DNA from: a virus
Length of the DNA: 64,000 bases
Strand: one strand, 5' to 3'
IMG/VR virus record: IMGVR_UViG_3300020187_000010
This document shows, piece after piece, positions 14,874-60,938 of this stretch. Both the position numbers and the translations under genes were made by a program. Position 1 is the first letter of the stretch, and every line of letters begins with the position of its first letter. The notes under the pieces are model-generated. The model saw nothing but the letters and a program-made list of their open reading frames with translations. It had not been told where the DNA came from and ran no database searches.

Positions 14874-14897
14874 TATAACTCTCGTTGATTTTACTTT

Positions 14898-14905: not shown

Positions 14906-14908
14906 CAC

Positions 14909-14959: not shown

Positions 14960-14965
14960 AGACAC

Positions 14966-14995
14966 AAAAAAAACCCCCATCCGAAGATGAGGGTC
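14966..14995 (-). terminator. Rho-independent terminator after gp23
   Basis: GACCCTCATC-TTCG-GATGGGGGT plus T-tract; cUUCGg tetraloop typical of T4-like phages. Confidence 0.88.
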
Positions 14996-15053
14996 AAAAG
15001 GTGATTTAACCGGGCGTTCCCGATCTATCACTCTTATTATTTTATACTACCAT

Positions 15054-34425: not shown

Positions 34426-34785
34426 TTACCTTGTTACCGAAGGTGAGACTTTGATCTTACCCTCTAAAATTCGTTCAATGAGAATATTACCGTCACTATC
34501 ATTGACCGCTAATTCAACGTCATAGACGTAACGTGTTCTGGTATTGAGGGTGTCAGTTTGAGTATTTGTGAGGGATAAAACTGCAATACCATCTGTTGCG
34601 GGTTCGCTAACGATAGTGGTGAAATCTAGGATCTCATCACTGTCAACAGAAGTGTAACTACGTTTCATTTTTGCGTTAACGGTATGTCCAGTCAAGTTTT
34701 TCTTGGAACCGTCAGTTTCCTGAAGGTGCAACTCGATTGCAACGTCTGCGCCTTGATCAATTGTAAAGTCTTCGTAATCTGCCAT
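34426..34785 (-). CDS. Conserved virion adaptor-like protein (beta-sandwich)
   Basis: IDQGAD...LSLTNTQT...RYVYDVE...RILEG.I.V.PSVTR family common in marine T4-like phages. Confidence 0.7.
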   Translation of the reverse strand: MADYEDFTIDQGADVAIELHLQETDGSKKNLTGHTVNAKMKRSYTSVDSDEILDFTTIVSEPATDGIAVLSLTNTQTDTLNTRTRYVYDVELAVNDSDGNILIERILEGKIKVSPSVTR

Positions 34786-34822
34786 TCCAGTTCCCATCAA
34801 ACCAAAGTTGTGTCTATGGTTT

Positions 34823-34830
34823 TATTTATA
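34823..34830 (-). promoter_or_regulatory. T4-type late promoter
   Basis: TATAAATA upstream of the 34785 ORF. Confidence 0.7.
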
Positions 34831-34857
34831 TGTTTTGGAAACTGGAAAACGAGATAT

Positions 34858-35553
34858 TTATTCGTCTGAACTAATTTCTTCGAGTAAATCTTCGCGAAGT
34901 TCAGCGGATAGTTGGGAAGTATCGAAAGTGAAAGATACTGTACATCTCCAACAGTCAGTCTTCGCGGCATGATAGAACAATCTTTCGGGTTCACCGTAAT
35001 GACCAAAGTATGCTGCCTTGCACTGCCACCCTGGCTTATCTTCCATCACCACAACTTCTTTTGATATAGGATCTACATATTCGAATTGACCTTCTCCAGT
35101 TTCCGACCACGTGAAGATCAAATTATACGCTGCTGCATTTGCATTATTGTGCCAAGAGATAAAACCACCGGGCGGATACCATGCGGTTAGTGCATTATTT
35201 TTCACACCCAACCAATTCATAAGTCCTTGATTCATGTGCGCGAGTTCTGCGGTTCTATCTTTTCTTACCGAGGGATGAACCCCGTTATTGAAAAATTCAT
35301 GTCCCTTGCGACCAACACTCATTTCATAACCATACATCTGATCGGGAAATCCTTCGTGTCGGGTTCCTTGATCTAATATTTCTTCCAGATGACCTTTACC
35401 CGCCCAGAAATGTCTATTCCGTGATTCGTGAGAACAACTCTTATGAAATGTTTCCTCGAAGTCAGGGATATCTCTGGTCAAGAAATCTCGATAGGCATTT
35501 AATTTCACCAATAAGTCTTGGTTCATCACCGGAATGTCTTGCATATAACTCAT
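34858..35553 (-). CDS. 2OG-Fe(II) oxygenase-like protein (HxN variant)
   Basis: YPPGGFISWHNN...FYHAA...RCTVSF; clear paralog of 13749-14372 (shared YNLIFTWSETG.G.F, GW.CKA.YFG). Confidence 0.6.
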   Translation of the reverse strand: MSYMQDIPVMNQDLLVKLNAYRDFLTRDIPDFEETFHKSCSHESRNRHFWAGKGHLEEILDQGTRHEGFPDQMYGYEMSVGRKGHEFFNNGVHPSVRKDRTAELAHMNQGLMNWLGVKNNALTAWYPPGGFISWHNNANAAAYNLIFTWSETGEGQFEYVDPISKEVVVMEDKPGWQCKAAYFGHYGEPERLFYHAAKTDCWRCTVSFTFDTSQLSAELREDLLEEISSDE

Positions 35554-36284
35554 ATAATATATCCGTCCTTATCTAATCCACAGGAATAATGTCTGACAAT
35601 AACTTCACCTTCTGGTCTAGTCCTTGCCCAGTTGAATGCGTTATAATAGTTCCAACGCAAATCATCTTCCAAGATACCATACTTCAGGTCTTTGTATTTA
35701 GGTTCTTTCTCGGTCAACCACCAAAGACTGAACTGATCCCATGACCGAAGACTTTCTATATATCCTTCAGGCCACCAGTCACGATCCATTTGTCTGCGTG
35801 TGAGATCCCACCAATCATCCATGAACTCACGTACAATAGGTTTGGTCATATCGTAAAGTGCAACACCACCACATAGAGTGAACTTGGATGGGCCATCGGG
35901 AGTATCAAAACTTCTTTCGGCATAGACATATTCACGATCATCGGTCAATTCAGAGAATAAGATGTCTTCGTCACGTCTTTCCAATTCATCAAAACAAATG
36001 CGGATATCTTCGTGTTCCACTTCCATATCAACATCGAGGTACATGGTTAGGTCATATGGAGAACGAGCCATACCATCTAGTTTTGCACGGTAGTGGGATG
36101 AACACCATTCAACATTATCAAATAAATCTCGGTGTATTTCTTCGAACATCCACTCTTCGCAGAATAGTGTAATCTTCGCATCTTCGTAATAATCCAGAAT
36201 AGATTCTGCTAGATTGATCGCATACCGATAGAAGTTAATCTTATTCGATGCAACCAACACATAACCTTTAGACTTCTCAGACAT
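35550..36284 (-). CDS. GT-A fold glycosyltransferase
   Basis: SPYDLTMYLDVD (DxD), WDQFSLW, RWNYY, IVRHYS. Confidence 0.7.
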   Translation of the reverse strand: MSEKSKGYVLVASNKINFYRYAINLAESILDYYEDAKITLFCEEWMFEEIHRDLFDNVEWCSSHYRAKLDGMARSPYDLTMYLDVDMEVEHEDIRICFDELERRDEDILFSELTDDREYVYAERSFDTPDGPSKFTLCGGVALYDMTKPIVREFMDDWWDLTRRQMDRDWWPEGYIESLRSWDQFSLWWLTEKEPKYKDLKYGILEDDLRWNYYNAFNWARTRPEGEVIVRHYSCGLDKDGYII

Positions 36285-36732
36285 CTTCCTCAACTCCAAG
36301 TTCTTCTTTTAAAAGCAACATAGCAAAAAGATTCGCTTCTACCTTGGACTTTGCTCGTCTAAGTTTAGACTTGAGTTTTCTGTTCTTAGAGTTTTTAATT
36401 TCTTCGGTTTCGAAGATTTCTAATTTATAGTTAAAGAGTTCTTCTAACTTACGTGCACGTGCGTGTTCCACATCACGTTGTTTATCTTCTTCTTTTTCGG
36501 CAGCTTTACGAATCTTACGGTCTTCGGTATTTCTATCTACAGACTCTTCACCTAAAGCATCAATGACTTCATTGAACAATTCATTTTCACTACCATCCTT
36601 ATTCTTGCGACTCAACATCATTACTTGTCGGGTCTCGCGATCCAGATCATCTTTCATTTCTAGGATACAGTTGAGTTTTTCTTTCTCCTCTGTTTCCCAG
36701 AACGCATTATCCATCCATCTTTTATAACTCAT
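36277..36732 (-). CDS. Hypothetical charged helical protein (possible assembly chaperone)
   Basis: 151 aa, GGAG RBS, overlaps the start of the glycosyltransferase gene. Confidence 0.65.
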   Translation of the reverse strand: MSYKRWMDNAFWETEEKEKLNCILEMKDDLDRETRQVMMLSRKNKDGSENELFNEVIDALGEESVDRNTEDRKIRKAAEKEEDKQRDVEHARARKLEELFNYKLEIFETEEIKNSKNRKLKSKLRRAKSKVEANLFAMLLLKEELGVEEDV

Positions 36733-36781: not shown

Positions 36782-39700
36782 TTAAGCAACCCTTACGTAC
36801 AAGGTATATGTCTCAATCACTCCTGTTCCGGAATCAACAGTTGTTCCGGTATAATTACCAGTAAAGTTTCTGGCATAATTTCCTGCGAATGTTCTACTAT
36901 AGTTACCCGCAAAACCTCTACTATAATTACCAGTAAAGTCACCTAAGTATGACGAGGTTCTAGTTCTAGTAGAATCTATGGTATATGCTGAATTTCGACT
37001 TCTACTAAAAGTGGATACTCTAGTTCGTGCAGAGGTTCTGACCGAAGTTCTTGAGTAGTCCCCAACAAAAGTTCTACTATAGTTACCAGTAAAGTCTCCG
37101 ACATAATTAGAAGATCGGGTTCTTGCATATTCACCAACAAAGGTTCTATTGTAGTTACCCACAAAGTTACCCGCAAAGTCTGAAGTAGAATCCCGAGTAT
37201 ATTCTCCTACAAAGTTTCTGTTGTAGTTACCAACAAAATCTCCTACGAAAGTCCGGCCATAATTACCACCAAATATTCTTGAGAAGTTACCAGTGTATTC
37301 TCCTACAAAATCAGTCGCACGAGTTCTTGCATATTCTCCCACAAAGTTTCTGTTGTAGTTGCCGACATAGTTACCCGCAAAACCTCTTGCATAGTTACCA
37401 ACAAATCCTCTATTGTAGTTACCGACAAAATTACCCGCGAATGTACTGATACTATTTCTTGTGTATTCCCCAACAAAAGTTCTATTGAAATTGCCGGTAT
37501 AATTACCCCCAAATCCACGATTGTAATTACCTGCGAATGCACGAGCATAGTCACCAATAAAGTTTCCAATAGAGTCGGTTACCCGAGTCCTAGAATAGTT
37601 ACCTGCGAATGCACGAGCATAGTTACCTTCAAATGCACGAGTCGAAGTGCGGAGAGATATACGGGTATAGTTACCAACGAATCCTCTATTATAGTTACCG
37701 ACAAAATTACCTGCGAATGTACTGATACTATTTCTGGTATAGTTTCCGGTAAAGGTTCTACCATAGTCACCAACAAAGTTTCCAATAGAGTCGGTTATAC
37801 GAGTTCTTGCGTAGGCAGATACACGATTACGAATATAAGACGATGCACGAGTACGTATATATGTGGATATTCTACTACGGGTCGATATACGAGTATATTC
37901 ACCAGTATAGTTGCCGGTGTAGTTGCCTGCAAATCCACGAGTATAATCACCAGTGAAATTACCTGCGAACGTGCGAGTATAGTTCGATGACAATGTGAGC
38001 ATATCAGTGATACTAGGACTTGCTGCGTTTGTAGTATCATCTACACGAGGTTCCCAGAACTGTTGATTGGTCGCGGTATCTGTTGAGTAATACAAGTATG
38101 TTCTGTGGTATGCAGTAGTGTTACCACTCCAGACAAAATCATTCTGAGCGGATACAACTTTCTCACCCGCCATATTATAGATACCAGAGTCAGCATGAGC
38201 CGCACCGGTACCAGAACCTTCGGGGAAAACGTGACCGACTACCAAAAACCATTCGTTTTGAGATTCGGTACCATACCACCAACCTCTCGCTTGGAAGTAC
38301 GGATTACTGTTAGATGCACCATTACTTCTGTTCAATACTGTTCCGCCAACACCAAGATAGAATGAACCATTACCAATAACTTTACGTCTTACCCATGTAG
38401 AGAATCTGTATAGTTTGGTTTTATCAACTGAGAAAGCTGAAGTATTCCAACCACCATCTGCATTAGATGTCGCATCTTGATTTGACACATCCCAAACGAT
38501 ATCAGTACCCTTCGGAGAAGTGTCGGAAATACGTGAGTTACCGTCCCCGTTCTGATTATAGTTAGTTGCAGAACCAGTACCAACTGTCCAAGCAGGAAAG
38601 TTCTGCCACAACAAGTTAGATTGATCTGAGTAACGTGTACCAGTTGTACCTACGAACTGAACGATACTATCACGAGTTGATGTACGAGTATACGTAGAAC
38701 TTCTGTTTTGAATACGAGTTCTTGTGTAATTACTAGGTCTACTGCGTGTAGATATTCTAATGTATGCGGATGATCTACTACGTGCCGATATACGAGTATA
38801 TGTGGAGAGACGGCCGCGGGTCGATGGGTTTATTGAAGTGCGAATATATGAAGAATTTCTACTACGGGTCGATATTCTAGTATACGCAGAGATGCGAGTT
38901 CGCGAATAGTCACCTATAAAGTTTCGCGAATAGTTTCCTATGTAGTCTCCGGTATAATATCCAATGCGAGTGTAGTCGCCTATGTAGTCACCTGCATAAG
39001 ATCCAATGCGAGTATAGTCACCCGTAAAGTCACCTGCGTAATATCCAATGCGAGTAAAGTATAATGGAGTTATTCTATTACGAATAGATATGCGAGTATA
39101 GTCTCCGGTATAGTACAATGTGCGAGTATAGTTACCGATGTAATATAGAGTTCGAGTATAGTCGCCTGTATAATACAATGTACGAGTATAGTTACCGGTG
39201 TAATATAGAGTTCGAGTATAGTCGCCCGTAAAGTTACCTATATAATATCCGGTTCGGATATAGGTATCGATTCGATTCGAAGTACGGGTACTTGTTCTAA
39301 TGTACGTACCGGTTCCAATTCTAGTACGTATAGATGTTCTGATATAATATCCGGTCGCAGTTCTGGTTCTCGAAGAATATCTCAGGTAATTCGCAACCCC
39401 CAAATAATCACCGGTATAATACACTGTCTGTTTAACTATTCGAGTATAGTCACCTACATAGTTAACTATTCTATTATAGTTACCTACAAAATTACCAACA
39501 TAATACAATGTACGAGTGTAGTTACCTGTGAAATTACCAATGTAATACAATGTACGAGTGTAGTTACCTGTGAAATCACCTGCATAATATGATGTACGTT
39601 GGTAGTATAATGTAGCAATTCTGTCTCTTATTGATATACGTTGGTAGTTACCAGTCGCAATTCTGGTACGAATATATGTTCCGGTGGCAGTTCTGGTACG

Positions 39701-42142
39701 AATATATGTTCCGGTGGCAGTTCTGGTTCTGATATAGTCACCAGTTGCAATTCTTATACGAGTATAATTTCCGGTATAGTTACCAGTATAGGTCGAATCA
39801 CGAGTATATGTTAAAATTCGACTACTAGTTCGAAGACTCGTTCGGATATAGTTGAGTGTGCGAACTGAAGTTCGAAGACTCGTTCGGATATAGTTGAGTG
39901 TGCGAACTGAAATACGTGTGCTGTTTCTGGTATATGCAGAAGGACGAGTACGGCCATATTCTCCTACGAACCCTCTATTATAATTGCCAGTATAATTGCC
40001 AGCAAACGCACGAGTATAATTTCCGGTATAGTTACCAATGTAGTTTCCGGCAAATGTTCTTTGGTAGTTACCAGTATAGTCGCCAGCAAACGCACGGTTA
40101 TAATTTCCGGTATAGTTACCAGCAAATGATCTACCATAGTCGCCGACATAATTACCGACAAATGTTCTTGCGTAATTACCACCAAAGTTACCGACATATC
40201 CTTGGAATCTGTCGCGAGTATATGTTACCAATGAATTCCGTGAAGAAATACGAGTGTAGTTGGAACCTCTTGTTCTTGCACTAATACGTGTTGATATACG
40301 AGAATAGTTGCCGGTATAGTCACCCGCAAACCCACGTGAATAGTTACCTATAAATGTTCTATTATAATTACCAACAAATGTTCTATTATAGTTACCAACA
40401 TAGTCACCGGTAAAAGTTACAAGTCTATCCCGAACATAATTGGAAACTCGGCCACGAGTGTAGTTACCAATAAAGTCACCGGTAAAGTCTGTTACTCGAT
40501 CACGTGTATATGCGGATATTCTCGTGCGTGTATAATTGCCTGTATAATTACCTGCATAATTAGAAACACGAATTCTTGCGTATGCAGAGATACGAGTACG
40601 GCCGTAGTTACCAACATAGTTACCGGTAAAAGTCGTTAGTTGATCTCTGGTGTATGTGGAGCTTCTAGTTCGGGTATATGCGGAGATACGAGTACGGGTA
40701 CTTATTCTAGAGTATGATGATACTCTGTTACGTGCATAGTTGCCAACAAAGTCGCCAATAAAGGATGTTACTCGATCACGAATATATGCACTGGTACGTG
40801 TTCGCGAATATGTTGATATGCGATTACGTGAGTATGTTCCTGCGTATGCGGATACTCTAGTACGGGAATAATCCCCAACAAAATTACCAATATAGTTTCC
40901 CGAAAACACGGTTGTGTATGTAGATGTTCTGTTACGAGTATATGTACTCAACCTGTTGCGAATACTATTTCTACTGTATGCAGATACTCTTGTTCTAGAA
41001 TAATTGCCTACAAAGTTACCTGTGAAAGTATTGATACTATCTCTGGTATATGCAGAAGATCTATTGCGAACATACTCGCCCACAAAGATTCTAGAGAAAG
41101 TATCAGTACTGTTTCTAGTGAAAGTTGAAGCACGGTTTCTTGTGTACTCACCTACGTAATTACCGACATACTCACCCACATAATCTCTGATATATTGTCC
41201 CGAAAAGTTTCGAGTGTAGTTGCCAATATAATTTCCACCAAAATCTCGGGTGAACGTATTTGTGCTATTACGAGTGTATAGTGAAGTTCTTGTTCTTGCG
41301 TATGCGGATGAACGATCACGAGTATAAGAAGATGCACGAGTACGAACATATGCAAGTTCTGAAGTTGTTCTTTTAGTATTGGTCGCAGTACCTTTTGCGG
41401 CCCAAGTTCCTGCACTTACCGGAGTTCCCTGAGTCGCAGATCTTAATTGGTAAGAACCAATATTACCCACCTTTCCCCTAAGAGTTTTACAGTGTTGTCC
41501 ATAAGTGTAAGTAATCTGGTTAACAGATTGTTCTTGTAATCCACCAAAACTGGCGGCAGAACCTGACCCAATCATACCAATCGGAGACGTGGCTGTCGGT
41601 GCAGTCATTGCATCACGTTGGTAGATATTGTATACTGTAGAAGTTCCGTTACCTAATGTATCTGTGTATACAGCGGGGATAAATGTACCATAGTCCGCAC
41701 TAGGTGCAGAAGAACCGAGGTAAAAGGTGCCTGGATAATCAGATATTGCAATACGTGCATTCAGACGAGTACATAAGGTATCCATATCTACATCAGTAAA
41801 TTCATGAATACCTACATCACCCGAAGTGTTCCAACCAACCGGTCTGTTATAAAAACTACCAGTATAGTTCGCATCATTAGATAGTTGTCTTAGATTAGTC
41901 GTAGTTGTGCCGGAAGTGATAGATGATGCGGGATGGGTACCATCAGGTTCATTGTAGAAAGTATCAACGAAAGAACCAATGATAGTACCACTAGAGAGAT
42001 GCAAGTCTCCCGCAGAAGAACCCGAAGAATTCTTTAGTTGAATACCTGCAAGATAGGCGAGATAGTTCTCTTCCGTAGGAGTCATCTCCTTCAGATCACC
42101 ATTCGTACCTTCTAACTTTAGTGGGATATCAGATGCGGCCAC
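36782..42142 (-). CDS. Giant self-complementary tetrapeptide-repeat protein A (1786 aa), predicted beta-hairpin filament with an inserted globular domain
   Basis: GTG start; ~265-aa N-terminal domain shared with the paralog; xGxY/xRxR/xSxY/xRxF words; 221-aa insert; C-terminal ETYTLYVRVA. Confidence 0.85.
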   Translation of the reverse strand: MAASDIPLKLEGTNGDLKEMTPTEENYLAYLAGIQLKNSSGSSAGDLHLSSGTIIGSFVDTFYNEPDGTHPASSITSGTTTTNLRQLSNDANYTGSFYNRPVGWNTSGDVGIHEFTDVDMDTLCTRLNARIAISDYPGTFYLGSSAPSADYGTFIPAVYTDTLGNGTSTVYNIYQRDAMTAPTATSPIGMIGSGSAASFGGLQEQSVNQITYTYGQHCKTLRGKVGNIGSYQLRSATQGTPVSAGTWAAKGTATNTKRTTSELAYVRTRASSYTRDRSSAYARTRTSLYTRNSTNTFTRDFGGNYIGNYTRNFSGQYIRDYVGEYVGNYVGEYTRNRASTFTRNSTDTFSRIFVGEYVRNRSSAYTRDSINTFTGNFVGNYSRTRVSAYSRNSIRNRLSTYTRNRTSTYTTVFSGNYIGNFVGDYSRTRVSAYAGTYSRNRISTYSRTRTSAYIRDRVTSFIGDFVGNYARNRVSSYSRISTRTRISAYTRTRSSTYTRDQLTTFTGNYVGNYGRTRISAYARIRVSNYAGNYTGNYTRTRISAYTRDRVTDFTGDFIGNYTRGRVSNYVRDRLVTFTGDYVGNYNRTFVGNYNRTFIGNYSRGFAGDYTGNYSRISTRISARTRGSNYTRISSRNSLVTYTRDRFQGYVGNFGGNYARTFVGNYVGDYGRSFAGNYTGNYNRAFAGDYTGNYQRTFAGNYIGNYTGNYTRAFAGNYTGNYNRGFVGEYGRTRPSAYTRNSTRISVRTLNYIRTSLRTSVRTLNYIRTSLRTSSRILTYTRDSTYTGNYTGNYTRIRIATGDYIRTRTATGTYIRTRTATGTYIRTRIATGNYQRISIRDRIATLYYQRTSYYAGDFTGNYTRTLYYIGNFTGNYTRTLYYVGNFVGNYNRIVNYVGDYTRIVKQTVYYTGDYLGVANYLRYSSRTRTATGYYIRTSIRTRIGTGTYIRTSTRTSNRIDTYIRTGYYIGNFTGDYTRTLYYTGNYTRTLYYTGDYTRTLYYIGNYTRTLYYTGDYTRISIRNRITPLYFTRIGYYAGDFTGDYTRIGSYAGDYIGDYTRIGYYTGDYIGNYSRNFIGDYSRTRISAYTRISTRSRNSSYIRTSINPSTRGRLSTYTRISARSRSSAYIRISTRSRPSNYTRTRIQNRSSTYTRTSTRDSIVQFVGTTGTRYSDQSNLLWQNFPAWTVGTGSATNYNQNGDGNSRISDTSPKGTDIVWDVSNQDATSNADGGWNTSAFSVDKTKLYRFSTWVRRKVIGNGSFYLGVGGTVLNRSNGASNSNPYFQARGWWYGTESQNEWFLVVGHVFPEGSGTGAAHADSGIYNMAGEKVVSAQNDFVWSGNTTAYHRTYLYYSTDTATNQQFWEPRVDDTTNAASPSITDMLTLSSNYTRTFAGNFTGDYTRGFAGNYTGNYTGEYTRISTRSRISTYIRTRASSYIRNRVSAYARTRITDSIGNFVGDYGRTFTGNYTRNSISTFAGNFVGNYNRGFVGNYTRISLRTSTRAFEGNYARAFAGNYSRTRVTDSIGNFIGDYARAFAGNYNRGFGGNYTGNFNRTFVGEYTRNSISTFAGNFVGNYNRGFVGNYARGFAGNYVGNYNRNFVGEYARTRATDFVGEYTGNFSRIFGGNYGRTFVGDFVGNYNRNFVGEYTRDSTSDFAGNFVGNYNRTFVGEYARTRSSNYVGDFTGNYSRTFVGDYSRTSVRTSARTRVSTFSRSRNSAYTIDSTRTRTSSYLGDFTGNYSRGFAGNYSRTFAGNYARNFTGNYTGTTVDSGTGVIETYTLYVRVA
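39661..39726. repeat. 30-bp tandem repeat (IRTRTATGTY)
   Basis: TTCTGGTACGAATATATGTTCCGGTGGCAG twice, plus a partial third copy. Confidence 0.85.
39827..39910. repeat. Perfect 42-bp tandem duplication (VRTLNYIRTSLRTS)
   Basis: AGTTCGAAGACTCGTTCGGATATAGTTGAGTGTGCGAACTGA twice. Confidence 0.9.
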
Positions 42143-42175: not shown

Positions 42176-42183
42176 TATTTATA
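42176..42183 (-). promoter_or_regulatory. T4-type late promoter upstream of repeat protein A
   Basis: TATAAATA about 34 nt before the GTG. Confidence 0.75.
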
Positions 42184-42190
42184 AGTTTAT

Positions 42191-45100
42191 TTATGCGGTT
42201 CTTACATACAGAGTATATGTTTCAACTGAGAATGTAGTATCCCTAATAGTCTGACCCACGTAGTCTCCTACAAAGTCTCTGGAATAATTACCGGCAAAGT
42301 TTCTACTATAATTACCGGTATAGTTGCCGCCAAAATCTCTAGTACTTGTTCGAGTAGACTCTCTAGTATATGAAGATCCTCTAGTTCTGGTGTATGTAGA
42401 CCCACGATTTCTTATAAAGTTTGTATTACTTACACGGGTATAGTTGGAGTTTCTATTTCTGGTAAACTCACCAGTATAATCACCGACATAATCCGCAGCA
42501 TAAACTCCAACGTATGTAGATGCTCTTAAAGTTATGTATGACGAAACCCGAGATCTACTGAAAGAATCGAACCTTGTTCTGGCTGATATTCGTGTGAAAT
42601 CTCCGGTATAGTTGCCGCCAAAATCTCTTGTGTAATTACCTGCAAAGTTTCTTGAGTAAGACGATACCCGAGTTCTGATATATGTCGAATAACGATCATT
42701 TAAACTAACTCTGGTAAATAGACCTGCATAATTACCGGTATAGTTACCGGCAAAGTCTCTCGTATATTCACCGGTATAGTTACCAGTATAGAGTGAAACC
42801 CTAGTCCGTATATAATTACTGTTTCTTTCTCGGGTAAAGTCTCTTGCATACTGTCCCGAGAAAGTAGAAGACCTAGTCAGTATATAATTACTGTTTCTTT
42901 CTCGGGTAAAGTCTCTTGAATATTGTCCCGAGAAAGTAGAAGATCTAGATCTTATGTAACTAGAATCTCTATTTCTGGTAAAGTCCCTCGCATATTCTCC
43001 CGCAAAAGTAGAAGATCTAACTCTTATGTAATTCGAATTTCTAGTTCTTTCATAGTTTCTTGAGTATTCGCCAACAAACAATCTATTATAACTTGATACT
43101 CTGGCTCTTTCGAAGTTTCTTGAGTATTCCCCAGCAAACTCTCTAGAATAAGTAGATACCCGAGTCCTAGTAAATTCGCGAGTGAATCCCTGCAAATATG
43201 AACTGACTCTTGTGAAATCACCAATGTATGAAGGAACCGTCCTAGTAGCTATAAAGTCACCGGTATACGTAGCGGGGCCAGCAAAGTAAAGACCACCACC
43301 CGATTTGTCGTATCTGACAGAATTCACAAATCCCGCAAAAGTAGATGTACTGTTACGAGTATATTCTCCTCCCGGCAATCCCAAATAACCAGCACCCACA
43401 AAGTCTCTTGTGTAATCACCAGTATAGTATAAAGTACCTTTTAGGTATTCTGCACGAGCTCGTGTATAATTACTTACTCTAACACCACCATATGTGGATG
43501 TCGAAGTGCGTGTAAAGTTTAATGTTCGAGTGAAGTTGCCAATATATGTTGAGAAACGAGTTCTGCTGAAGTTTCTATTATATGTAGAAATTCTATCTCT
43601 TGTATAGTCACGTGCATATTCACCAACAAAGGCTCTATTATATGCTGAACTTCTATCTCTAGTGAAGTCACGTGCATAGTTACCAATATATGTGGCAGTA
43701 TAATTGCCAGTGTAAGTTGATGACCTAATTCTAGTGAAGTCACGTGAATATTGTCCAGAGAAAAATCTGGAGTAATTGCCAGTGTAAGTTGATGACCTAA
43801 TTCTAGTGAAGTTACGTGCATATTGTCCAGAGAAAAGTCTGGTATAATCGCCAGTGTAATTAGAATTTCTAATTCTAGTGTAGTCACGTGCATATTGTCC
43901 AGAGAAAAATCTGGTGTAATCGCCAGTGTAATTAGAATTTCTACTTACTATTCTTGTTCTGGTATAGGTAGATGTTCTAGCACGTGTCGAGATTCGTGTA
44001 TATTCACCTACATAGTTACCAGCATAGTTGCCAAGAAACATTCTAGTATAGTTGCCGGTAAAGTCTCTGGAATAATTAGATGTACGAGTTCTACCATAAG
44101 CCGATTCCCGAGTCCGTGTGAAGTCTCTGGTATAATTGCCTGTAAATTCACCGGCATATGAACTGATACGTGTCGCTATGAAATCTCTAAAAAAGGTACG
44201 TGAAAAGTTGCGACTGAAGTTACCTGTGTAATTTCCAATATAGTTGCCTGTAAAGTCTCTAGAATAGTCTCCGACAAAAGTTCTACCATAGTCGCCAGTA
44301 AAATCACCGGTATAATTGCCCGTAAATTCTCTGGTATAGTTTCCTATAAATTCTCTGGTGTAATTGCCTGTGAATTCACCGGCATATGAAGTTGTCCCTG
44401 TGCGAGTGTAATCATCAGCGTAAGCCGAAGGTCTAGTTCTCGTGTATAAAGATGCTCGTGTGCGAGTATAGTTCTGTTCACTGACAACACGAATGGTGTT
44501 TGCAGCACTACCTACATTCTTCCAAGTACCACCGACAGGTATACCCTGCGAAGAAGTTCTAAGTTCATATGATCCGACCGCACCATCAATTGCACGTCTG
44601 GTTTTCGCACGTTGACCAATAGTCACTTGAACTTGACGATCTGTTAATGCTTGTAATCCTTCATAAGTACCAGAGGCGCCACTACTTCTCTTCAGTCCCG
44701 CGAGAGTGACCGAAGTTGGAGCAGTCATTGCAGTTCTACGCCATATACTATAGTCATTTACAGTATATGGGTTCCCCGAAGAGTCAGCACGTTGATCATG
44801 CAAAACACTAGGGACTAGAATGTCATAGTCTGCACTAGGTCTGGTCGAAGACAACTTGAGAGAGCCTGGATAGTCAGATAGTGCGATACGACCATTGATA
44901 TCATCGATGAAAGTGTTCAGATCATTATCCGACATTTCATATACATTACTTTCATAATGTCCGACTGGTTTTCTCCAATCACTATCATTCTCTAGTGCGG
45001 TACCATTGATCTGATATAAATTTGTTGTGGTGGTAATAACCGATTGGGCATTATATGGATGAGTTCCAACGGGTTCTGGATAATAGGTATCCGTCAGAGA

Positions 45101-45277
45101 TCCAAGAGACCTATTTCCACTTGCACTGAGCGTAAGAAGCCCTACATCGCTACTGTCCGCAATTGCGTTCTGTAGTCCTGCGAGGTAGGCAACATAATTT
45201 TTCTCGGTTGCATTTATCTGTTGGAGATTACCATTAATGTCTTTTAATTTTAACGGTAATGTCTTATTATCTGACAT
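42191..45277 (-). CDS. Giant self-complementary tetrapeptide-repeat protein B (1028 aa)
   Basis: Paralog of A (PLKL, NY.AYLAG, SDYPG, AMTAPT, GSY.LR; C-terminal ETYTLYVRTA) with the same word vocabulary. Confidence 0.85.
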   Translation of the reverse strand: MSDNKTLPLKLKDINGNLQQINATEKNYVAYLAGLQNAIADSSDVGLLTLSASGNRSLGSLTDTYYPEPVGTHPYNAQSVITTTTNLYQINGTALENDSDWRKPVGHYESNVYEMSDNDLNTFIDDINGRIALSDYPGSLKLSSTRPSADYDILVPSVLHDQRADSSGNPYTVNDYSIWRRTAMTAPTSVTLAGLKRSSGASGTYEGLQALTDRQVQVTIGQRAKTRRAIDGAVGSYELRTSSQGIPVGGTWKNVGSAANTIRVVSEQNYTRTRASLYTRTRPSAYADDYTRTGTTSYAGEFTGNYTREFIGNYTREFTGNYTGDFTGDYGRTFVGDYSRDFTGNYIGNYTGNFSRNFSRTFFRDFIATRISSYAGEFTGNYTRDFTRTRESAYGRTRTSNYSRDFTGNYTRMFLGNYAGNYVGEYTRISTRARTSTYTRTRIVSRNSNYTGDYTRFFSGQYARDYTRIRNSNYTGDYTRLFSGQYARNFTRIRSSTYTGNYSRFFSGQYSRDFTRIRSSTYTGNYTATYIGNYARDFTRDRSSAYNRAFVGEYARDYTRDRISTYNRNFSRTRFSTYIGNFTRTLNFTRTSTSTYGGVRVSNYTRARAEYLKGTLYYTGDYTRDFVGAGYLGLPGGEYTRNSTSTFAGFVNSVRYDKSGGGLYFAGPATYTGDFIATRTVPSYIGDFTRVSSYLQGFTREFTRTRVSTYSREFAGEYSRNFERARVSSYNRLFVGEYSRNYERTRNSNYIRVRSSTFAGEYARDFTRNRDSSYIRSRSSTFSGQYSRDFTRERNSNYILTRSSTFSGQYARDFTRERNSNYIRTRVSLYTGNYTGEYTRDFAGNYTGNYAGLFTRVSLNDRYSTYIRTRVSSYSRNFAGNYTRDFGGNYTGDFTRISARTRFDSFSRSRVSSYITLRASTYVGVYAADYVGDYTGEFTRNRNSNYTRVSNTNFIRNRGSTYTRTRGSSYTRESTRTSTRDFGGNYTGNYSRNFAGNYSRDFVGDYVGQTIRDTTFSVETYTLYVRTA

Positions 45278-45291: not shown

Positions 45292-48200
45292 TTAGTTTAG
45301 AAGAGTACCGTTTTCGTCATAGATTAAGACAGTTCTAGATGCCAGTTCATTTAACGCTTTAACAATACTATCATTATTTATACCTTCAAAGAAGTTGCCT
45401 GGCGCAGAACTGTCAAGTGTATTCAACTGACCAACTCGATTACTCAAGTTTAGAATGTCTGTGTCATTACTTGTGACTCTACCCTTTACGACTTCAATTT
45501 CACCAACCGCACTATCCAGTTGGGTGTGGATCTCATTGATAGCCGGAACAATAAACTTACTTGTTGTATCCAGTGTGGAGATACCTGTTCCTGACATGTT
45601 CGCAGTTGTACCACCGGACTGTATAATGTCCAGATGCGCACGGGTTATAAGTTTCTCGGACTCTATCTCGGTAACTGCACTATCTAGTTGCAAATGAAGT
45701 TCATTGATACCACCCGCAACATCTTGTGCGGTAGTGTCTAGATCTTCGTCAGTGTGGAATGCACGACCATGTATCTCTACCTTAGTTGCATCCATTTCGA
45801 TTGCAAGACCAGTACCAGAATAAATGTCCAGATGATTGCCAGAGTTTCGGAATTCACCAAACTGAACGGTTGCATCTTTAAGGAATACATTACCACCGTC
45901 TGCATCAAGTGTAATATCACCGGAGACATCATACGTCAGATTTCCTACAACATCAACTTCTTGGTTTGTACCAAGGTTATAGGTGAACTTAGTTACACCG
46001 CCATCCTTGAAGAAGATGTCCGCGCCATTCGCGTCAAGTGTAATATCACCTTCTGCATCAAGAAGAATATTTGTTCCTGCATTGATGGTTGCAGTTGTTC
46101 CTGCGGTAGTAGATGTAGATCCACCGGCAGTCTGTACAATACTACCTGTAGTAGTCAGACCATACGAGTCCGCACTATCATTTAATGCACCGATGATAGC
46201 ATTTACTAATGTGCCACCAACAGTAGTAGTTTTGTTTACAGTAATATTCTCTTTTACCGAACCACCAATAGTTAGACTATAACCATTTGTAGTAGTCAAA
46301 GATGCAGAATCACTTACCGATATATTATAATCTCCGGTAACAGTGATGTTGTTTGTTGCACCTAATTGATGACGGATGCGTGTGGATGCACCGTCTTTGA
46401 AGTAAATGTCGTTTCCATCTGCGTCAAGTGTAATATCACCAGAAGCATCGATCAAGTAATTACCATCTGCTGTATGGGTTTGTCCCAATGATGTTGTGGT
46501 CAATGTACCCAAAGTAGTATGAGACATTGCACCACTAGAAGTAACTGAGTAAGTACCACCAGCACTATCAGATTGGTTACCTGATACAGTTTGTGTAAGA
46601 TTACCGTTAACATCTAAAGTGTTTGACGCACCCATTCCATATGAGAAACGAGAAGTACCTGCATCTTTGAAGTCGATGTCTCCACCGTCTGCATCCAGTA
46701 CTATATCACCTGCCACATCGACAGTTAAGTTGCCGGTGGGTACGTCAATCTCTTGATTCGCACCCATAACGAAGTCGAATCTGATCGCCCCATTATCTTT
46801 AAGTGTAACATTACCGCCATTTGCATCAAGGTTAATATCACCCTCAACATCTGCGGTTAGGTTACCACCAGCGGTAAGACCCATGTTTGATTCAGTAACA
46901 AGATTGAACGCACCACCCGCAGTATTCGTCATCGGGCCACGAGTGTCGATATTAATACCGTTAGTCGAAGAGATGTCACGAGTACCAGAAGCACTGTCAG
47001 AGTGATCTCCTGCCACTGTAAGGGTGTTGTTACCCGAAGTAGTAGTAGTGAGTGTACCTGTAACATCTAAAGTATTTGCTGAACCCAGTCCGTAAGCAAA
47101 ACGAGTCGTTCCAGCTTGTTTGAGGTCAATGTCACCACCACCGGCATCCAATACAATATCATTGACAACATCAAAGATCAACGAACCGACAACATCAATC
47201 TCTTGATTCGTACCGAAATTATATGTTACCTTATTGGCACCACCATCTGTTAGATATAGTTGTCCACCATCAGCATCGAGAGTAATATCTCCAGATGCAT
47301 CAACAGTGAAGTTTCCCGCCACATTATGGGTTTGTCCCAATGATGTTGTGGTGAGAGTACCAAGAGTGGTATGAGACATCGCACCAGTTGAGGTGATGTC
47401 ACGAGTACCATTTGCACTGTCTGAGAAGTTGCCTGAGACGGTTTGAGTTAGATTACCTGTAATGTCTAAGGTATTAGATGCACCAAGTCCGTATTCAAAT
47501 CTAGATACTCCACCGTCTTTTAGGTCGATGTTTGCGCCATCTGCGTCTAATATAATATTACCAGACACATCAAGAGTATAATTGCCAGTTACGGCTTCGG
47601 TGTTAGTGGTACCCATCGTATATGCAATACGAGTAACACCACCATCTTTGTATGTAATGTTTGCCCCATCTGCATCGAAGATTATATCACCCGAGATGTC
47701 AAATGTCAAGTTTCCGGTACGAGAAACTGTACCGTCAGTAGCAAAGTCGTACTCTGTGACACCAGCATCTTTGAATGTGACATTACCACCATCAGCATCA
47801 AGGATAATATCTCCGGACGCATCGACAGTGTATGTGGTCGTTTCTATTCTAGTTGCACCGGTAGAGGTAAGAGTTGTATCACCAGATACATCGATATCTA
47901 AGTTAGAAGAAATATCAAGATCAAGGATACCAGTCACACCAACTGTGTTAGTGGTACCTAATGTGAATGCAATACGACTGACCGAATCATCAAGGAAGTT
48001 GATGTTAGATCCACCGGCATCTAAATTAATATCACCTACCGCATCAACGTTGAAGTTTGCACCGACATTGAATTGTACATCAGTACCACTTGCTTGATTA
48101 GTACTGATTAGTAAACGAGTTTGAGTTTCCCCTTGGAGGGCATTTCCCGTAGGATAAATGATTTCACCGGAAGATGCGTCAAACACTCTTTCGATTTCGT

Positions 48201-48333
48201 TGATGGCCATGACCACATCACTATCACCGTGAGTGAGAAGATCCACCGGATCGCCAACATTATAAGAGACAGTGTTGAGGTTGTCTCGCATTATCTTGAA
48301 CGAGTCACTTAGTTTCGTAAATGGTCTTGACAT
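45292..48333 (-). CDS. Fibre protein with DI.LDADG beta repeats (1013 aa)
   Basis: Many GDI.LDA.G.....KD.G repeats, AINE coiled segments, C-terminal IYDENGTLLN. Confidence 0.7.
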   Translation of the reverse strand: MSRPFTKLSDSFKIMRDNLNTVSYNVGDPVDLLTHGDSDVVMAINEIERVFDASSGEIIYPTGNALQGETQTRLLISTNQASGTDVQFNVGANFNVDAVGDINLDAGGSNINFLDDSVSRIAFTLGTTNTVGVTGILDLDISSNLDIDVSGDTTLTSTGATRIETTTYTVDASGDIILDADGGNVTFKDAGVTEYDFATDGTVSRTGNLTFDISGDIIFDADGANITYKDGGVTRIAYTMGTTNTEAVTGNYTLDVSGNIILDADGANIDLKDGGVSRFEYGLGASNTLDITGNLTQTVSGNFSDSANGTRDITSTGAMSHTTLGTLTTTSLGQTHNVAGNFTVDASGDITLDADGGQLYLTDGGANKVTYNFGTNQEIDVVGSLIFDVVNDIVLDAGGGDIDLKQAGTTRFAYGLGSANTLDVTGTLTTTTSGNNTLTVAGDHSDSASGTRDISSTNGINIDTRGPMTNTAGGAFNLVTESNMGLTAGGNLTADVEGDINLDANGGNVTLKDNGAIRFDFVMGANQEIDVPTGNLTVDVAGDIVLDADGGDIDFKDAGTSRFSYGMGASNTLDVNGNLTQTVSGNQSDSAGGTYSVTSSGAMSHTTLGTLTTTSLGQTHTADGNYLIDASGDITLDADGNDIYFKDGASTRIRHQLGATNNITVTGDYNISVSDSASLTTTNGYSLTIGGSVKENITVNKTTTVGGTLVNAIIGALNDSADSYGLTTTGSIVQTAGGSTSTTAGTTATINAGTNILLDAEGDITLDANGADIFFKDGGVTKFTYNLGTNQEVDVVGNLTYDVSGDITLDADGGNVFLKDATVQFGEFRNSGNHLDIYSGTGLAIEMDATKVEIHGRAFHTDEDLDTTAQDVAGGINELHLQLDSAVTEIESEKLITRAHLDIIQSGGTTANMSGTGISTLDTTSKFIVPAINEIHTQLDSAVGEIEVVKGRVTSNDTDILNLSNRVGQLNTLDSSAPGNFFEGINNDSIVKALNELASRTVLIYDENGTLLN

Positions 48334-48571: not shown

Positions 48572-51500
48572 TTATACTGCCAGTGATATAATTCTCAAGT
48601 CACGGAATGAAGGTACTTTCGCACTGTTGGTCGATCTCATAACAATCTTAACTTGGAACTGTGTGAATGGTGACATAGTACCACCATCACCACCTACAAG
48701 ATAACGGTATTCACGGAACACGTTCTTGTTAGTATCAACTGGTAGAACGGTTTCAGAATTAACCAGAGTCCATGCAGATCTCTTAATGTCATCACCCGCA
48801 CTTGCGACTTTCCAATAAACTTGGAAGTCTGACTCAGGAGGTCTATTCGCAGCAAGTAAGATCTTCAGTCCAACAGCCTGTTCGGTAAGAGTTGTTATTT
48901 TAGTAACATGTTTTGCAGACTCAGTACCATATAGAGGGTTAGTTTCACCGACATAAGATAATGGTACATTGAAACCATCCGTAGACGAAGAATCTTGTCT
49001 AGAGATCATGTTGTGAATAGTGTTCAACTTACAACGTTGTAAATCAATGACTGGAGACAAGTATGGATTGGTTGTCTTCAATGTTAACTGTACAGTAGCA
49101 GATCTCTCGCCATTGAGTTTACCTGCGGTTGACAGATTCTCGGTGCGTCTGTTAAATAGTGCACGAGGATTTGTGAACTCATTATTCTTCTTGTTCTCAA
49201 TGATGTTATATGAACCATCTTTAACAAATCGAACTTGACTTCCTGCCAATGCGGACTGACTAGTAGTCTTAATCGACATAGTGTAGTTAGTCTCGCCTGG
49301 TTGTTTGATATCAATCTCGGGTCTCAATACTTCGAAGTTCATGTTTCTCTGAGAAGTTACAGAAGAACCACCGAACCACTTACGAGAGGTCGCAGATGAA
49401 GTTGCAGCATAGGTGTAACCAGAGTTATCAAAATCGATAACAGTACGTACCCCATTAACATCTGCACCGGTCAAACCGTTACCAAAGTCAGTTGCAGAGT
49501 CGATACCTCGAATCCAAGTCTTATCACCATCTCTAAGGCCATGACCTTTGAACATAACACGTACTGTGTTAGATCCAGAATCCACTACCAAAGGATCTTT
49601 AGACAAAGATACTGGAGGTATGTTTGCATTCTCAAGGATAGCATTACCAGAGGTTTCAAACTTAGCAACATTGATTCTGTATGAAAGATCTTGACCACTA
49701 GAAGGTTCCCACAATTTAGCATTCTGAGATTTAAAGAATCCACCCAGAGTTGTTTGTTGTGAGATGAACGCTTCGTTAGAGTTCAATTGGTGTTCACCGA
49801 CAGTTGCAACATATACGTTATAGTCCGGATCATTGTTGCCCGGTCTTAGTACGAGTGCATACTCTCCACCCGCAACAAATACCGGATGATCAAATGTAAA
49901 CGTAGTAGCATTCTGCAACATTTGTTTGTTGGTAGATCCTTCTGGAACAAGAGATACTTGACTTGCAGATAATTTCTTAGTTGCAATAATCTTACTTGAA
50001 GACGGAACGCCATTCACAGTAGGTCTCAACTCACAGAATACAGGAGCAGAAGAAGACTTACTTGCAAAGTAAACATCAACAGATGTAATGAATACACCGG
50101 CAATTTGTTTAACCAAGAAGGTCTGCGCGATTGGATCGTTATATTCTAGTCTATTATTGGTATGTCTGTAATTGATACCACCTTTACCCTGTCGAGTAGT
50201 TCTTTCTACTGGAGTTAGGTCGGCATCAGTCACCGCACCGCCCGGAGGAACTGTAGTGTCTGTTACATGATCTACCGGAGTGATTTGGTTGAGATAATTT
50301 ACCTCAGAAGTTTCACCAACATGTTCTGTAGATGATGTGGTATCACCGACCAGAGTAGAATATGTTTCGGTAGATACTACATCTGTAGCAATTTCTGTCG
50401 AGATAACAGATTCAGTCCATACAGTTGAACTTGAAGCAATTGTTCTATCAACATCACTGGTACTGTTACCTACGATTTTAAGTACGCGAGTTACTTCGAC
50501 TTCATCTTCATACTCTTCGAGAACACCTTTAGAGTGGAACATTGCTCTACCATAAGACATTGCAGCACTGAAGTCATTGACATTTACGTCAAGTAATGCA
50601 AACTCACGAGGCCCTGTGTAGAAACGCATTGCTTGGTTGTTAGGTACTTCGAACGAACCAATAATACTACCTTCTGCGTCAGATATAAGGTTGGTCTTAC
50701 CAGAACTATGTTCTTGGGTAGTACGTTGAACACCTTCACCATCTTCAGTACTTTTAGATGCAAGGTAATTGCGTTGAGCCCAAGTACTGAACGTAGTCTG
50801 TTCCCTACAGAAAGAAGATACGTTAGAACCATCAAAGAATGGGAAGTACTGTGTATTAGGACGCAGACCTTCAGCTTTGAATTGAATATCAATCGAACGC
50901 ATGAAAGGAATGACCGATACATCGATAACCTTTTTACCAACTACGTCACGAATAGTAGACTCACTCGCAATACGGTTTACTGTATTGGAAGTTGTTGTTG
51001 TTGTTGTGGTATCCGTAGTAGACTCATACGCATTTTCAGTTTCGATTGTGCGTGTGGTTTCATAAGTAGATGTGTTAACAGTCTTAACTTTATCTCTAGT
51101 TTCGGTAGTAACAACATCCCACATATCAGTGGTAATTTGTTCGGCAGTCCAAGGGTTGTAATAACCATATGAATAAGAACCTGTTCCACCTAAGCCAAAG
51201 TAAGAACCAGACCAGTTACCAGTCCAACCACCCCAATAGTTATGGTTCCACCAAGAATCTATTACTGTACGTGAGATTTCTTCTTCACGTTCACGTGATA
51301 CTTCTACAGTTTCGGTATAAAGAGTTTCAACATCAGTCACATGACCGACTTCAACCCACTCACCGAGAGTTTCGGTTGTCTCGGTACCAATAAGAACAGG
51401 ATCTGAACTATTGTGTGTTATCGAAGTTGCGGTACCACTTACAAATGAAGTTGCAGCATCACCAGCTTCTAGGTCAGAAGGATCTACACCAAACCATTCG

Positions 51501-54463: not shown

Positions 54464-55834
54464 CTAGATAGTAATTACGATTTTCAGGTCTTCGGTTTGA
54501 TCGGTGGATCGCGTTACAGCTGAACGGTTATCAATATATAGTAGATCCCCAGTGTACGGATTAAACTCACCGTCTACTTTACTGGTTATCGAACCGTTAA
54601 TATTTGTGTTACCTACCACCTGAATTTCTTCTGCAACTTGGAAGGAAGTGAATCCAGTTGTTTCGTTTTGATGATACCAGATTGTATCCGAATCATTAGT
54701 GTTGTCGATGATTGCAACTGCGCCAGAAGTAACACCTTGAATCTGAGATTTTTGCACAATAGACTTGACAAATCCTGATCCATCGTGTATAATACTATTA
54801 AGTGCCAGAGCGGAAGTAGATGTAAGTAAAACACCTTCTGCACTATCAACTCTTGGATTGCGTACCAATAACACTTGACGGAATATCTCGTCACCAGTAA
54901 TAAAGTCACCGTTTTCAATACCATCTGGTTTGGAGTTAAACATAACACCATTTGCCTTCAGGTCAATAACAGGATTAGATCCAACACCAGATGCTTGTCC
55001 CAATACAGGACGAACAATACAAGAGTCACCACCACCACCAGAAATTAATACGTTTGCATAGTCGTAACCACTACCAAAGTAAGAGTTGCCCGAGTTACCC
55101 GCAGAGTCGGCCTTGACCTTGATGTCTACGATAGTCTCACCCGCACGTACCGCATAAGCAATCGCACCAGTACCATTACCTACGATACTTACCGAAGGTG
55201 CAGATGTATAACCAGATCCACCATTAGTTACTTTATAACCAACGATTTGTCCTTTTACCGCAGCGTTCTGGACTAGTTGTTGTTGTAGATCTTCGGCAGG
55301 AGAATCCGAGTCGGTTGAACCAACAAATCTTACAGGCATATATGCAGATGACAAAAACTTATCTGCACGTAATGCACCGATAGAGTAAAGGAACTTCCAC
55401 GTGTAACCATCCGCAGTACGGAATGGTGTACCGGTAGTGTTACCAGTAGGTTGGTTGGTAGATAACTGCGAAGAACCATCCTGTTTCTTACCCTGTTCCA
55501 AACAGATGTAAATCTCGTTATTCGAGTTGATTACATAGAAAGGATTCTCGGGGAAACCTACATCGTTATCATCATATGCAGAGTAGATAAGGTTAGCAAC
55601 CCATATTCTACGTGGAATTACATATGAGGCATCTTCGATGAGTTTTGCAGATTGCAAAGAATTTCTTGCCTGTCTGACAGAACGTGAATCATTAGTAGGA
55701 ACAGTCGCAAGATCAGAAGCATTCCAATCTTCGGATCTACCAATGGCCGCATAGTATCTTACAGAAGAAGAGTCCAAGTCCGTAAGAAGATCATCTAAGA
55801 CCTGTTTTTTAAATTGATCGGTAATTACTGGCAT
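54464..55834 (-). CDS. gp8: Baseplate wedge subunit gp8
   Basis: FYVINS...YICL, TADGYTWKFLYSI, GDLLYIDNR...QTEDLKIVI. Confidence 0.9.
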   Translation of the reverse strand: MPVITDQFKKQVLDDLLTDLDSSSVRYYAAIGRSEDWNASDLATVPTNDSRSVRQARNSLQSAKLIEDASYVIPRRIWVANLIYSAYDDNDVGFPENPFYVINSNNEIYICLEQGKKQDGSSQLSTNQPTGNTTGTPFRTADGYTWKFLYSIGALRADKFLSSAYMPVRFVGSTDSDSPAEDLQQQLVQNAAVKGQIVGYKVTNGGSGYTSAPSVSIVGNGTGAIAYAVRAGETIVDIKVKADSAGNSGNSYFGSGYDYANVLISGGGGDSCIVRPVLGQASGVGSNPVIDLKANGVMFNSKPDGIENGDFITGDEIFRQVLLVRNPRVDSAEGVLLTSTSALALNSIIHDGSGFVKSIVQKSQIQGVTSGAVAIIDNTNDSDTIWYHQNETTGFTSFQVAEEIQVVGNTNINGSITSKVDGEFNPYTGDLLYIDNRSAVTRSTDQTEDLKIVITI

Positions 55835-60325: not shown

Positions 60326-60938
60326 CATCTTCGAGAACTTCTACCAACTCATTCTTTGCAAAAAGTATTCCGTTGTATCTTGTTTCCAATTCATTTTTAT
60401 AGTATAACTTCCAAGTAATTCCATCTACCTTTGGCATTACGACTGTTACTTGTGCATTGAGTTTTCCTGTTGGATCCCACTTATCATATTCTAGAATAAG
60501 TTTATCGTATCCAACATAGTCCTTGATATACTCAGCAAGATCGAATGTTCTTTCATAATCGATCTCACCCTTCTCATCAACTACTTTGTAACTTACCATT
60601 TGACCGTCTTGTTTTAGAAGATTTTCTCCTGCAACTGTTTCTAGAGGGCCACCACGATAAACCCCTTCCGATACAATAAGACGCACATCTTTGAACATGT
60701 CAATGTTTCCATTGATTCTACGGAACAACTCTGCGTGTAGATAGAGATTGTATGCAAGTTGTTGTCTATCATTAGGACTGTTTTGATATTTGTCTATGGT
60801 CGATAAACTACATGGGTTTCCTTTACTGCCAAGAAACTTAGAGACTGATACTCCAGGCGCAAGTTTAGTGAACGAAGTAATATCCTTCGCATCAACTAAA
60901 GCTGGATTGTATTTCTGATCTGGTACAATTGTTATCAT
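60321..60938 (-). CDS. Hypothetical baseplate-region protein
   Basis: 205 aa, ATGA-coupled to the gp5-like gene; YDKLILEY motif. Confidence 0.6.
   Translation of the reverse strand: MITIVPDQKYNPALVDAKDITSFTKLAPGVSVSKFLGSKGNPCSLSTIDKYQNSPNDRQQLAYNLYLHAELFRRINGNIDMFKDVRLIVSEGVYRGGPLETVAGENLLKQDGQMVSYKVVDEKGEIDYERTFDLAEYIKDYVGYDKLILEYDKWDPTGKLNAQVTVVMPKVDGITWKLYYKNELETRYNGILFAKNELVEVLEDV

Follow-up and report, generated by a model that had tools for sequence, protein, structure and literature searches.

A gene at positions 36782-42142 (minus strand) of virus record IMGVR_UViG_3300020187_000010 raises the question why a large viral protein should carry two long arms made of short peptide words, and why the words of one arm should match those of the other when the latter is read backwards. 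The stretch that was analysed, here called the window, comprises 64,000 nucleotides of this record. The gene is a single open frame with a GTG start and encodes 1786 residues; we refer to its product as protein A (P0001). With a probability of about 0.8, we take protein A to be an intrachain antiparallel β-hairpin that forms a stalk fibre on a conserved base module. The initial annotation of the locus had proposed a hairpin of this kind, and the coordinates it gave for the paired region (nucleotides 36851-41347, residues 266-1764) and for its apex (nucleotides 39416-39445, residues 900-909) are exact.

Word complementarity between the arms

All parts of the gene lie on the minus strand. A conserved N-terminal globular domain (residues 1-265; 41348-42142) is followed by the outgoing N arm, 634 residues of four- and six-residue words (residues 266-899; 39446-41347), and by the apex TRIVKQTVYY (residues 900-909; 39416-39445), where the chain would reverse. 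The return arm consists of an inner part (residues 910-1165; 38648-39415) and an outer part (residues 1387-1764; 36851-37984), between which lies a non-repetitive globular insert of 221 residues that is probably a binding domain (residues 1166-1386; 37985-38647). A conserved C-terminal tail (residues 1765-1786, ending in ETYTLYVRVA) occupies, together with the stop codon, positions 36782-36850. When the insert is subtracted from residues 910-1764, each arm contains exactly 634 stalk residues. His, Cys, Trp and Met are absent from the arms and Lys occurs there only once; the odd word positions are filled with small or β-branched residues (T, V, I, A, N), and the stalk is very rich in Arg.

Words were assigned to the classes n (last residue non-aromatic, typically xRx[RS]), s (xSx[YF]), G (xGx[YF]) and R (xRxF). 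The pairs n:G, s:R, s:G and G:G were counted as allowed, and n:G or s:R as the strict set. In the outer arms, where the word starting at residue 266+4k was set against the word starting at 1761-4k, all 94 pairs between residues 266-641 and 1387-1764 were allowed (100%) and 80 of the 94 were strict (85%). Other antiparallel registers reached maxima of 66/94 allowed and 41/94 strict. When blocks of 1-6 words were kept intact and shuffled 20,000 times per block size, the maxima were 74 allowed (79%) and 55 strict (59%), and the observed values have a z-score of about 9-10. A parallel pairing or a solenoid-like direct repeat was ruled out, since the parallel orientation at its best circular shift gave at most 71 allowed and 49 strict pairs, against the 94 and 80 observed in the antiparallel one. 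The parse into four-residue words from residue 266 without register slip was thus borne out, and the hand count was reproduced exactly: each of the 53 words that end in a non-aromatic residue lies opposite a word with Gly at position 2.

The inner arms were parsed over residues 642-899 and 910-1163 by a rule that admits six-residue words. Between residues 646-899 and 910-1163, 56 of 57 pairs obeyed the code and any other offset yielded 36 or fewer, so that pairing does resume beyond the insert, as had been claimed. The 13 six-residue words of the inner arms all face six-residue words, and the word pairing closes on the apex from both sides. The insert itself splits one word between its positions 2 and 3 (V1164 G1165 / N1387 Y1388), and the rejoined word faces the n-word at residue 642. 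Over the whole stalk, 151 of 152 word pairs of four or six residues obeyed the code, the only violation being FQGY opposite IVQF. Scoring across offsets and shuffles, which the initial annotation had expected to give a single sharp anti-diagonal, did so, with alternatives at or below about 79% of allowed pairs.

An origin as a DNA palindrome or antisense copy was ruled out, since the reverse-complement identity of the two arms at the pairing offset was 0.30, within the background of 0.26 +/- 0.04; the symmetry of the arms exists only at the level of the protein. The complementarity is thereby confirmed as real and far beyond chance. Because no mutational mechanism writes proteins backwards, selection on a physical interaction is its only reasonable source.

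Relatives, a paralog and mirrored length changes

Protein A belongs to a family defined here by its N-terminal domain, its self-pairing stalk and its C-terminal tail. A phmmer search with the N-terminal domain against 1.84 billion representatives returned 329 cluster representatives at E<=1e-3, of which 148 remained at E<=1e-30, always with the match at the N-terminus and starting at about residue 1-6. Some have only about 400 residues, and the ESM-Atlas contains members of 330-390. The motif of the C-terminal tail, ETYTLYVRxA across the family, was present in 145 of 242 family members that were fetched, the remainder being mostly fragments, and its columns are nearly invariant in the alignment of 73 complete members (A1). 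Self-pairing was scored with a log-odds matrix of residue pairs derived from the 630 mirrored residue pairs of protein A only, a matrix with limited sensitivity for distant dialects, under which 76 of the 145 tail-bearing members scored more than twice as high as their own shuffles. Among 104 metagenomic homologs, all annotated as hypothetical, most scored many standard deviations above their own shuffles, and the pairing always began just after the N-terminal domain and against the extreme C-terminus. Seven other large proteins of the window, which served as negative control, had background self-antiparallel scores. In the relatives, the number of inserted globular domains reaches six and the tips vary; in some, a compact globular domain stands in place of the apex and is flanked by matched arms. 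For one homolog (P0003), a precomputed annotation places PF13385 (Concanavalin-A-like/LamG lectin) somewhere in the protein.

The only cultured or deposited relative is found in phage C48C1 (OQ984149.1, Kyanoviridae), whose gene at 5439-15482, with an annotated GTG start, encodes an anonymous hypothetical protein of 3347 residues; annotation of the relatives offers hypothetical proteins only. The C48C1 protein shares the N-terminal domain and the C-terminal tail with protein A, and its self-antiparallel score under the A-trained matrix was 403, compared with 177 for the parallel orientation and 110 +/- 17 for 8-mer shuffles. Residues 275-1296 pair with residues 3317-1369 when inserted globular domains are skipped, which gives arms of about 1025 residues; the longest ungapped diagonal covers 417 residues with a score of 252, the next best scoring 106. 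One globular domain lies near the tip and about five are spliced into the return arm. The protein also contains a near-exact internal duplication of about 75 residues (~2010-2085 / 2083-2158) at the end of a lectin-like insert.

Directly upstream of the gene for protein A lies that of a paralog of 1028 residues, protein B (42191-45277, minus strand), which shares with A the N-terminal domain (45% identity) and the C-terminal tail and has a hairpin stalk of its own with an irregular tip rich in Gly and aromatic residues. Its self-antiparallel score was 226 against 80 +/- 16 for shuffles with the A-trained matrix, and 62 of 85 words were allowed at offset 0 compared with 53 or fewer at other offsets. 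When the arms of A were cross-paired with those of B under the same matrix, the self-score of B was no higher than the cross scores; with a matrix trained on A, the comparison cannot be read for or against a separation of the paralogs by the code.

The initial annotation had proposed as a test of the pairing that a change of arm length in homologs should be accompanied by the mirrored change in the other arm, and four protein pairs display this pattern. A second virus record (G001) shares 44% of the 31-mers of the window and has orthologs of both A and B. Its ortholog of A, A2, is 90% identical to A and differs from it in the arms by exactly two indels, +14 residues after residue 868 and +14 residues after residue 932. 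The extra units are a G-word, a G-word and a six-residue word in the outgoing arm and a six-residue word, an n-word and an n-word in the return arm, so that A2 keeps one ungapped diagonal while the sum of paired positions moves from 1809 to 1837; 59 of its 60 inner pairs obey the code. The remaining indels (8, 3 and 1 residues) all fall inside the globular insert, which is the most divergent part of the two proteins (52-78% identity). Substitutions between A and A2 affect 56 word pairs and change the word class in none, and the apex differs at one residue only. The ortholog of B, B2, has 20 additional residues in each arm. Among close metagenomic pairs found by k-mer screening of the family, P0063/P0076 (+16/+16) and P0073/P0086 (+12/+12) have insertions of complementary classes that flank an apical globular domain. 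A further pair with equal indels, P0062/P0171 (+16/+16), was not counted, as one of the two falls in a non-stalk region.

Protein A also contains a perfect tandem duplication of 42 bp (residues 746-773; 39827-39910, minus strand; repeat families D12 and D6), which faces a two-unit repeat at residues 1036-1063 of the return arm (inner pairs 26-31; region 38925-39060). The outgoing copies are perfect at the DNA level, while the facing units are only 73-81% identical, and this unequal divergence reflects either matched duplications of different age or homogenisation of one side.

A proposed hairpin stalk and its alternatives

In the fold that we propose, the N-terminal domain (residues 1-265) and the last ~22 residues would form one base module, which presumably docks on the baseplate. 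The chain would run outward for 634 residues, turn tightly at residues 900-909 and come back over another 634 residues, the return arm pairing antiparallel with the outgoing arm as β-strands so that the two zip together. By the word rules (xRx[RS] against xGx[YF], xSxY against xRxF, xRxLYY against xAxGxY), a bulky or cationic side chain would meet Gly, a small residue or an aromatic one in each word pair. Since the word classes follow one another aperiodically, all pairs are satisfied in one register only, the next best satisfying about 70% of the allowed ones, and the repetitive stalk should thus be unable to slip; locking of the register would be the purpose of the code. The length of the stalk would change only through matched insertions or duplications in both arms, and globular domains, probably glycan-binding, would be spliced into the return arm or the tip as bulges that leave the register undisturbed.

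A model of the base came from AlphaFold2 (AF2), which was run on the minimal family member P0166 (436 residues) with the alignment of the 73 complete members. The mean predicted local distance difference test score (pLDDT) was 77.6 and the predicted template modelling score 0.70, with pLDDT above 90 in the N-terminal domain and of 90-98 in the C-terminal tail. The model contains two long strands, residues 260-294 at the start of the N arm and residues 398-434 at the C-terminus, with pLDDT 70-98 near the base; a ribbon leaving its base would be expected to give two such continuous strands, of 35 and 37 residues, at mirrored positions. Fold matches of the model span residues 4-436 and the C-terminus therefore belongs to the base. 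Three viral clusters of the ESM-Atlas have the shape of P0166, C-terminus included, and no Foldseek match was obtained in the PDB or BFVD at E<=0.001. VIA-align comparison of the N-terminal domain gave best Z values of 5-7 to MABP/β-prism-like domains, which is within the noise range. At the sequence level, protein A matched no Pfam family at E<=0.01, its N-terminal domain had no Pfam, PHROG or PDB match, and the 221-residue insert had no Pfam match at E<=1 and no PDB sequence match. Taken together, the single anti-diagonal, its conservation in homologs, the mirrored indels and the base strands of the AF2 model strongly support the initial proposal of antiparallel arm pairing within one chain.

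Several points weigh against the β-hairpin stalk. A ribbon of about 200 nm that has a net charge near +125 and lacks a classical hydrophobic core is physically unusual. It is from their lengths and positions only that we infer the pairing of the two long strands of P0166, whose distal stalk (residues 294-398) had pLDDT below 50. AF2 run without an alignment on residues 742-1068 of protein A was uninformative (pLDDT 37, a meander), and neither this run nor that on P0166 produced a confident three-dimensional model of the stalk. The N-terminal domain had no convincing similarity to baseplate-attachment proteins (Z 2.8 over 47 residues for T4 gp11, Z 2.7 for the KP1 baseplate cup). Finally, protein B breaks the rules of A in 16 of its 78 first words, and does so systematically as R:R pairs (xRD[FY] opposite xRD[FY]) and s:s pairs (xSxY opposite xSxF) that recur at regular intervals in a region of 24-residue repeats (residues ~447-571 against ~703-830); the code is therefore not identical between the co-expressed paralogs.

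Within a word pair, the sequence is compatible with a residue register of a+b = 4, 5 or 6. With a+b = 6 the contacts would be R:Y, R:G, S:F and Y:R, and in six-residue words R:Y, L:G and Y:A. With a+b = 5, Arg at position 2 would meet Asn, Asp or Glu at position 3 of the G-words, Arg and Asp would contact each other reciprocally in the xRD[FY]:xRD[FY] pairs of protein B, and a two-residue turn at K904-Q905 would close the apex. Covariation of odd positions within n:G pairs was significant; it is confounded by regional repeat dialects and was not used to choose a register.

The hairpin could stand alone or in a bundle. We give slightly better than even odds to a homotrimer in which three hairpins are bundled into a six-stranded antiparallel needle, an iron-free and hugely elongated analogue of the needle of T4 gp37. 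This would refine the hairpin rather than replace its topology, and of the two oligomeric states it is the one that we favour. Phage fibres are usually trimers, and the chain of the gp37 needle runs to the tip and back inside a trimer (PMC9659904; PMC6957217; PMC12143355); moreover, a narrow core could be lined by the small and β-branched residues at odd word positions, and the gene is part of a T4-like fibre module in which an LtfC-like gene for assembly follows downstream. The bundle is opposed by the absence of His from the arms, which excludes the HxH iron sites of gp37, and by the lack of sequence or profile similarity to that protein. The other state, which the initial annotation had proposed with a length of up to about 210 nm if fully extended, is a free-standing monomeric two-stranded β-ribbon of about 0.2 micrometres (about 0.3 in C48C1) with its register set by a digital-like word code; we put it forward only tentatively and regard it as rather doubtful.

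A role outside the fibre, as another virion or intracellular component such as a cationic ruler or scaffold or a polyanion-binding filament, is unlikely. The charge of about +125 on the very Arg-rich stalk would suit such a role, as would the fact that the only globular domain on the stalk of A is placed laterally, some 255 residues away from the tip and not at it. Against this, the gene is flanked on one side by baseplate genes and on the other by fibre-assembly-like genes, with a late-promoter-like motif upstream, and relatives have up to six inserted domains and variable tips. In addition, the insert has 31-37% identity to part of the 'virion structural proteins' of Vibrio phages, and no part of protein A evolves faster, as expected of a receptor-binding module. 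The Vibrio phages that share the insert number about 15, are jumbo-sized (228-254 kb) and otherwise lack the hairpin family. The putative binding domain appears to be a mobile module common to unrelated fibres.

Complementarity by itself cannot separate pairing within a chain from pairing between chains, and the N arm might be zipped onto the return arm of another molecule in an antiparallel domain-swapped dimer or a head-to-tail polymer. We regard this as highly improbable. The word pairing is gapless up to a 10-residue apex, the conserved C-terminal tail was modelled with its own N-terminal domain in a fold whose matches span residues 4-436, and homologs exchange the apex for a compact globular domain between matched arms; a swapped dimer would also place attachment domains at both ends. 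The notion that low-complexity periodic repeats or repeat expansion produced the anti-diagonal as a side effect, without physical pairing, can draw on the small number of word classes, their strong local period-2/period-3 alternation and a background matching of about 58% allowed pairs, but it is effectively refuted by the excess over all offsets and block-preserving shuffles, by the lack of a genetic mechanism that copies a protein in reverse and of a palindrome in the DNA, by the mirrored indels in four independent protein pairs and by the persistence of the signal in homologs of differing word order.

Comparison with known fibres

The closest known system to the proposed hairpin stalk is the needle of the T4 long-tail-fibre protein gp37, also a chain-reversal fibre element of antiparallel β-strands in a T4-like phage and with the same proximal/distal direction. 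Its structure is reportedly that described by Bartual et al. in 2010 under PDB 2XGF. The arms of gp37 have fewer than ~100 residues, whereas those of protein A have 634 and those of the C48C1 protein ~1025 (6-10 times longer), and the seven Fe ions that the gp37 needle holds on HxH motifs contrast with the absence of His and Cys from the hairpin arms of A. The gp37 needle lacks the tetrad word code and bears its receptor site in a head domain at the tip, while the domain of protein A is spliced into the side of the return arm. It is also a proven trimer, a state that for protein A is only the more likely one. A Pfam scan of protein A and a PDB sequence search with both arms, which found nothing relevant, revealed no homology to gp37. 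The gp37 needle bundles six antiparallel strands, with each chain going out to the tip and returning (PMC9659904; PMC6957217), and the 634+634 anti-diagonal and the mirrored indels give protein A the same course as far as sequence can indicate.

The initial annotation had known of no described phage fibre with this architecture. Full-text literature searches yielded no account of such proteins, nor any mention of phage C48C1. The statement has to be qualified in that the gp37 needle is a short six-stranded antiparallel precedent (PMC9659904). A phage stalk with chain reversal is thus already known in kind; its present scale has no described equivalent, and the word code was not found described.

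Canonical trimeric folds such as the triple β-helix (T4 gp5C, gp12), the triple β-spiral (adenovirus fibre) and coiled coils resemble the hairpin fibre in their short repeats, their fibre gene context and their need for assembly factors. In these folds, parallel chains extend in register between an anchor at the N-terminus and a distal domain at the C-terminus, whereas the arms of the hairpin fibre carry no parallel signal and its N- and C-termini would meet at the base. The central sheet of Borrelia OspA and the G5-E rods of staphylococcal SasG are likewise long, thin β-structures stabilised by cross-strand side-chain contacts without a hydrophobic core, but they are non-phage proteins with three-stranded domain repeats tens of residues long and have neither a long-range anti-diagonal nor complementary words. 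By analogy only, protein A resembles a nucleic-acid stem-loop, with antiparallel complementary units, a terminal loop, bulged inserts, compensatory indels and a register fixed by aperiodic order. Its units, in contrast, are peptide words of 4-6 residues in about five classes, paired under degenerate rules by the size, charge and aromatic character of side chains.

If the stalk is as the sequence implies, these proteins would be long thin rods built unlike every characterised phage fibre fold, each a single chain paired with itself over hundreds of residues in a register set by a small alphabet of complementary words. Structural virology would gain a new fibre architecture from abundant uncultured T4-like marine phages, protein evolution a clean natural case of compensatory indels inside one protein, and protein design a rule set for fixing β-strand register and for splicing domains into an intact β-ribbon. 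Even the conservative trimeric six-stranded reading would leave an iron-free needle 6-10 times the length of that of T4 gp37. A free two-stranded ribbon would amount to a new category of protein architecture, nature's protein counterpart of the nucleic-acid stem, which evolves by compensatory double indels, carries domains as bulges and might be re-programmed for designed β-filaments.

Genomic context of the gene for protein A

The window represents a structural module of a T4-like myovirus with all genes on one strand. On the minus strand it encodes the major head protein (15054-16406), portal (18651-20174), sheath (20772-22580), large terminase (22668-24275), a giant protein with DUF4815 (48572-54454) and baseplate wedge proteins (57995-59842 and 54464-55834). 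A gp5-like hub (45292-48333; phrog_430, DUF2345, with a weak match to the gp5 C-terminal trimerisation domain) lies next to the gene for protein B, and a second match to phrog_430, a gp5-like baseplate hub/tail lysozyme, is located at 60935-62371. The nearest phages by wedge protein were C48C1 (36% identity) and then pelagimyophages and cyanomyoviruses (about 27%); a blastn search of the baseplate region against phage records gave no match. From this context, the virus is an uncultured marine myovirus of T4-like type, and the hairpin gene probably specifies one of its late virion proteins, tail-fibre-like in kind. A late-promoter-like motif, TATAAATA, can be read at 42176-42183 (minus strand), 33 nucleotides upstream of the GTG; we take it to match the late-promoter consensus of T4. 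Between this motif and the GTG start lies a Shine-Dalgarno-like GAGAAG.

Directly downstream of the hairpin gene follows a cassette of four genes (36277-36732, 35550-36299, 34858-35553 and 34426-34800; together 34426-36732, minus strand). The same four genes stand in the same order behind the giant gene of C48C1, with 45-68% identity, much higher than the identity between the fibres themselves. Features from the language-model-based ESM-Atlas link the 249-residue product to nucleotide-diphospho-sugar transferases (score 0.97) and the 231-residue product only faintly (0.87) to a 2OG-Fe(II) oxygenase or Asp/Asn hydroxylase, and the 124-residue product is weakly LtfC-like. The products of the cassette could thus be enzymes that modify the stalk or chaperones for its assembly.

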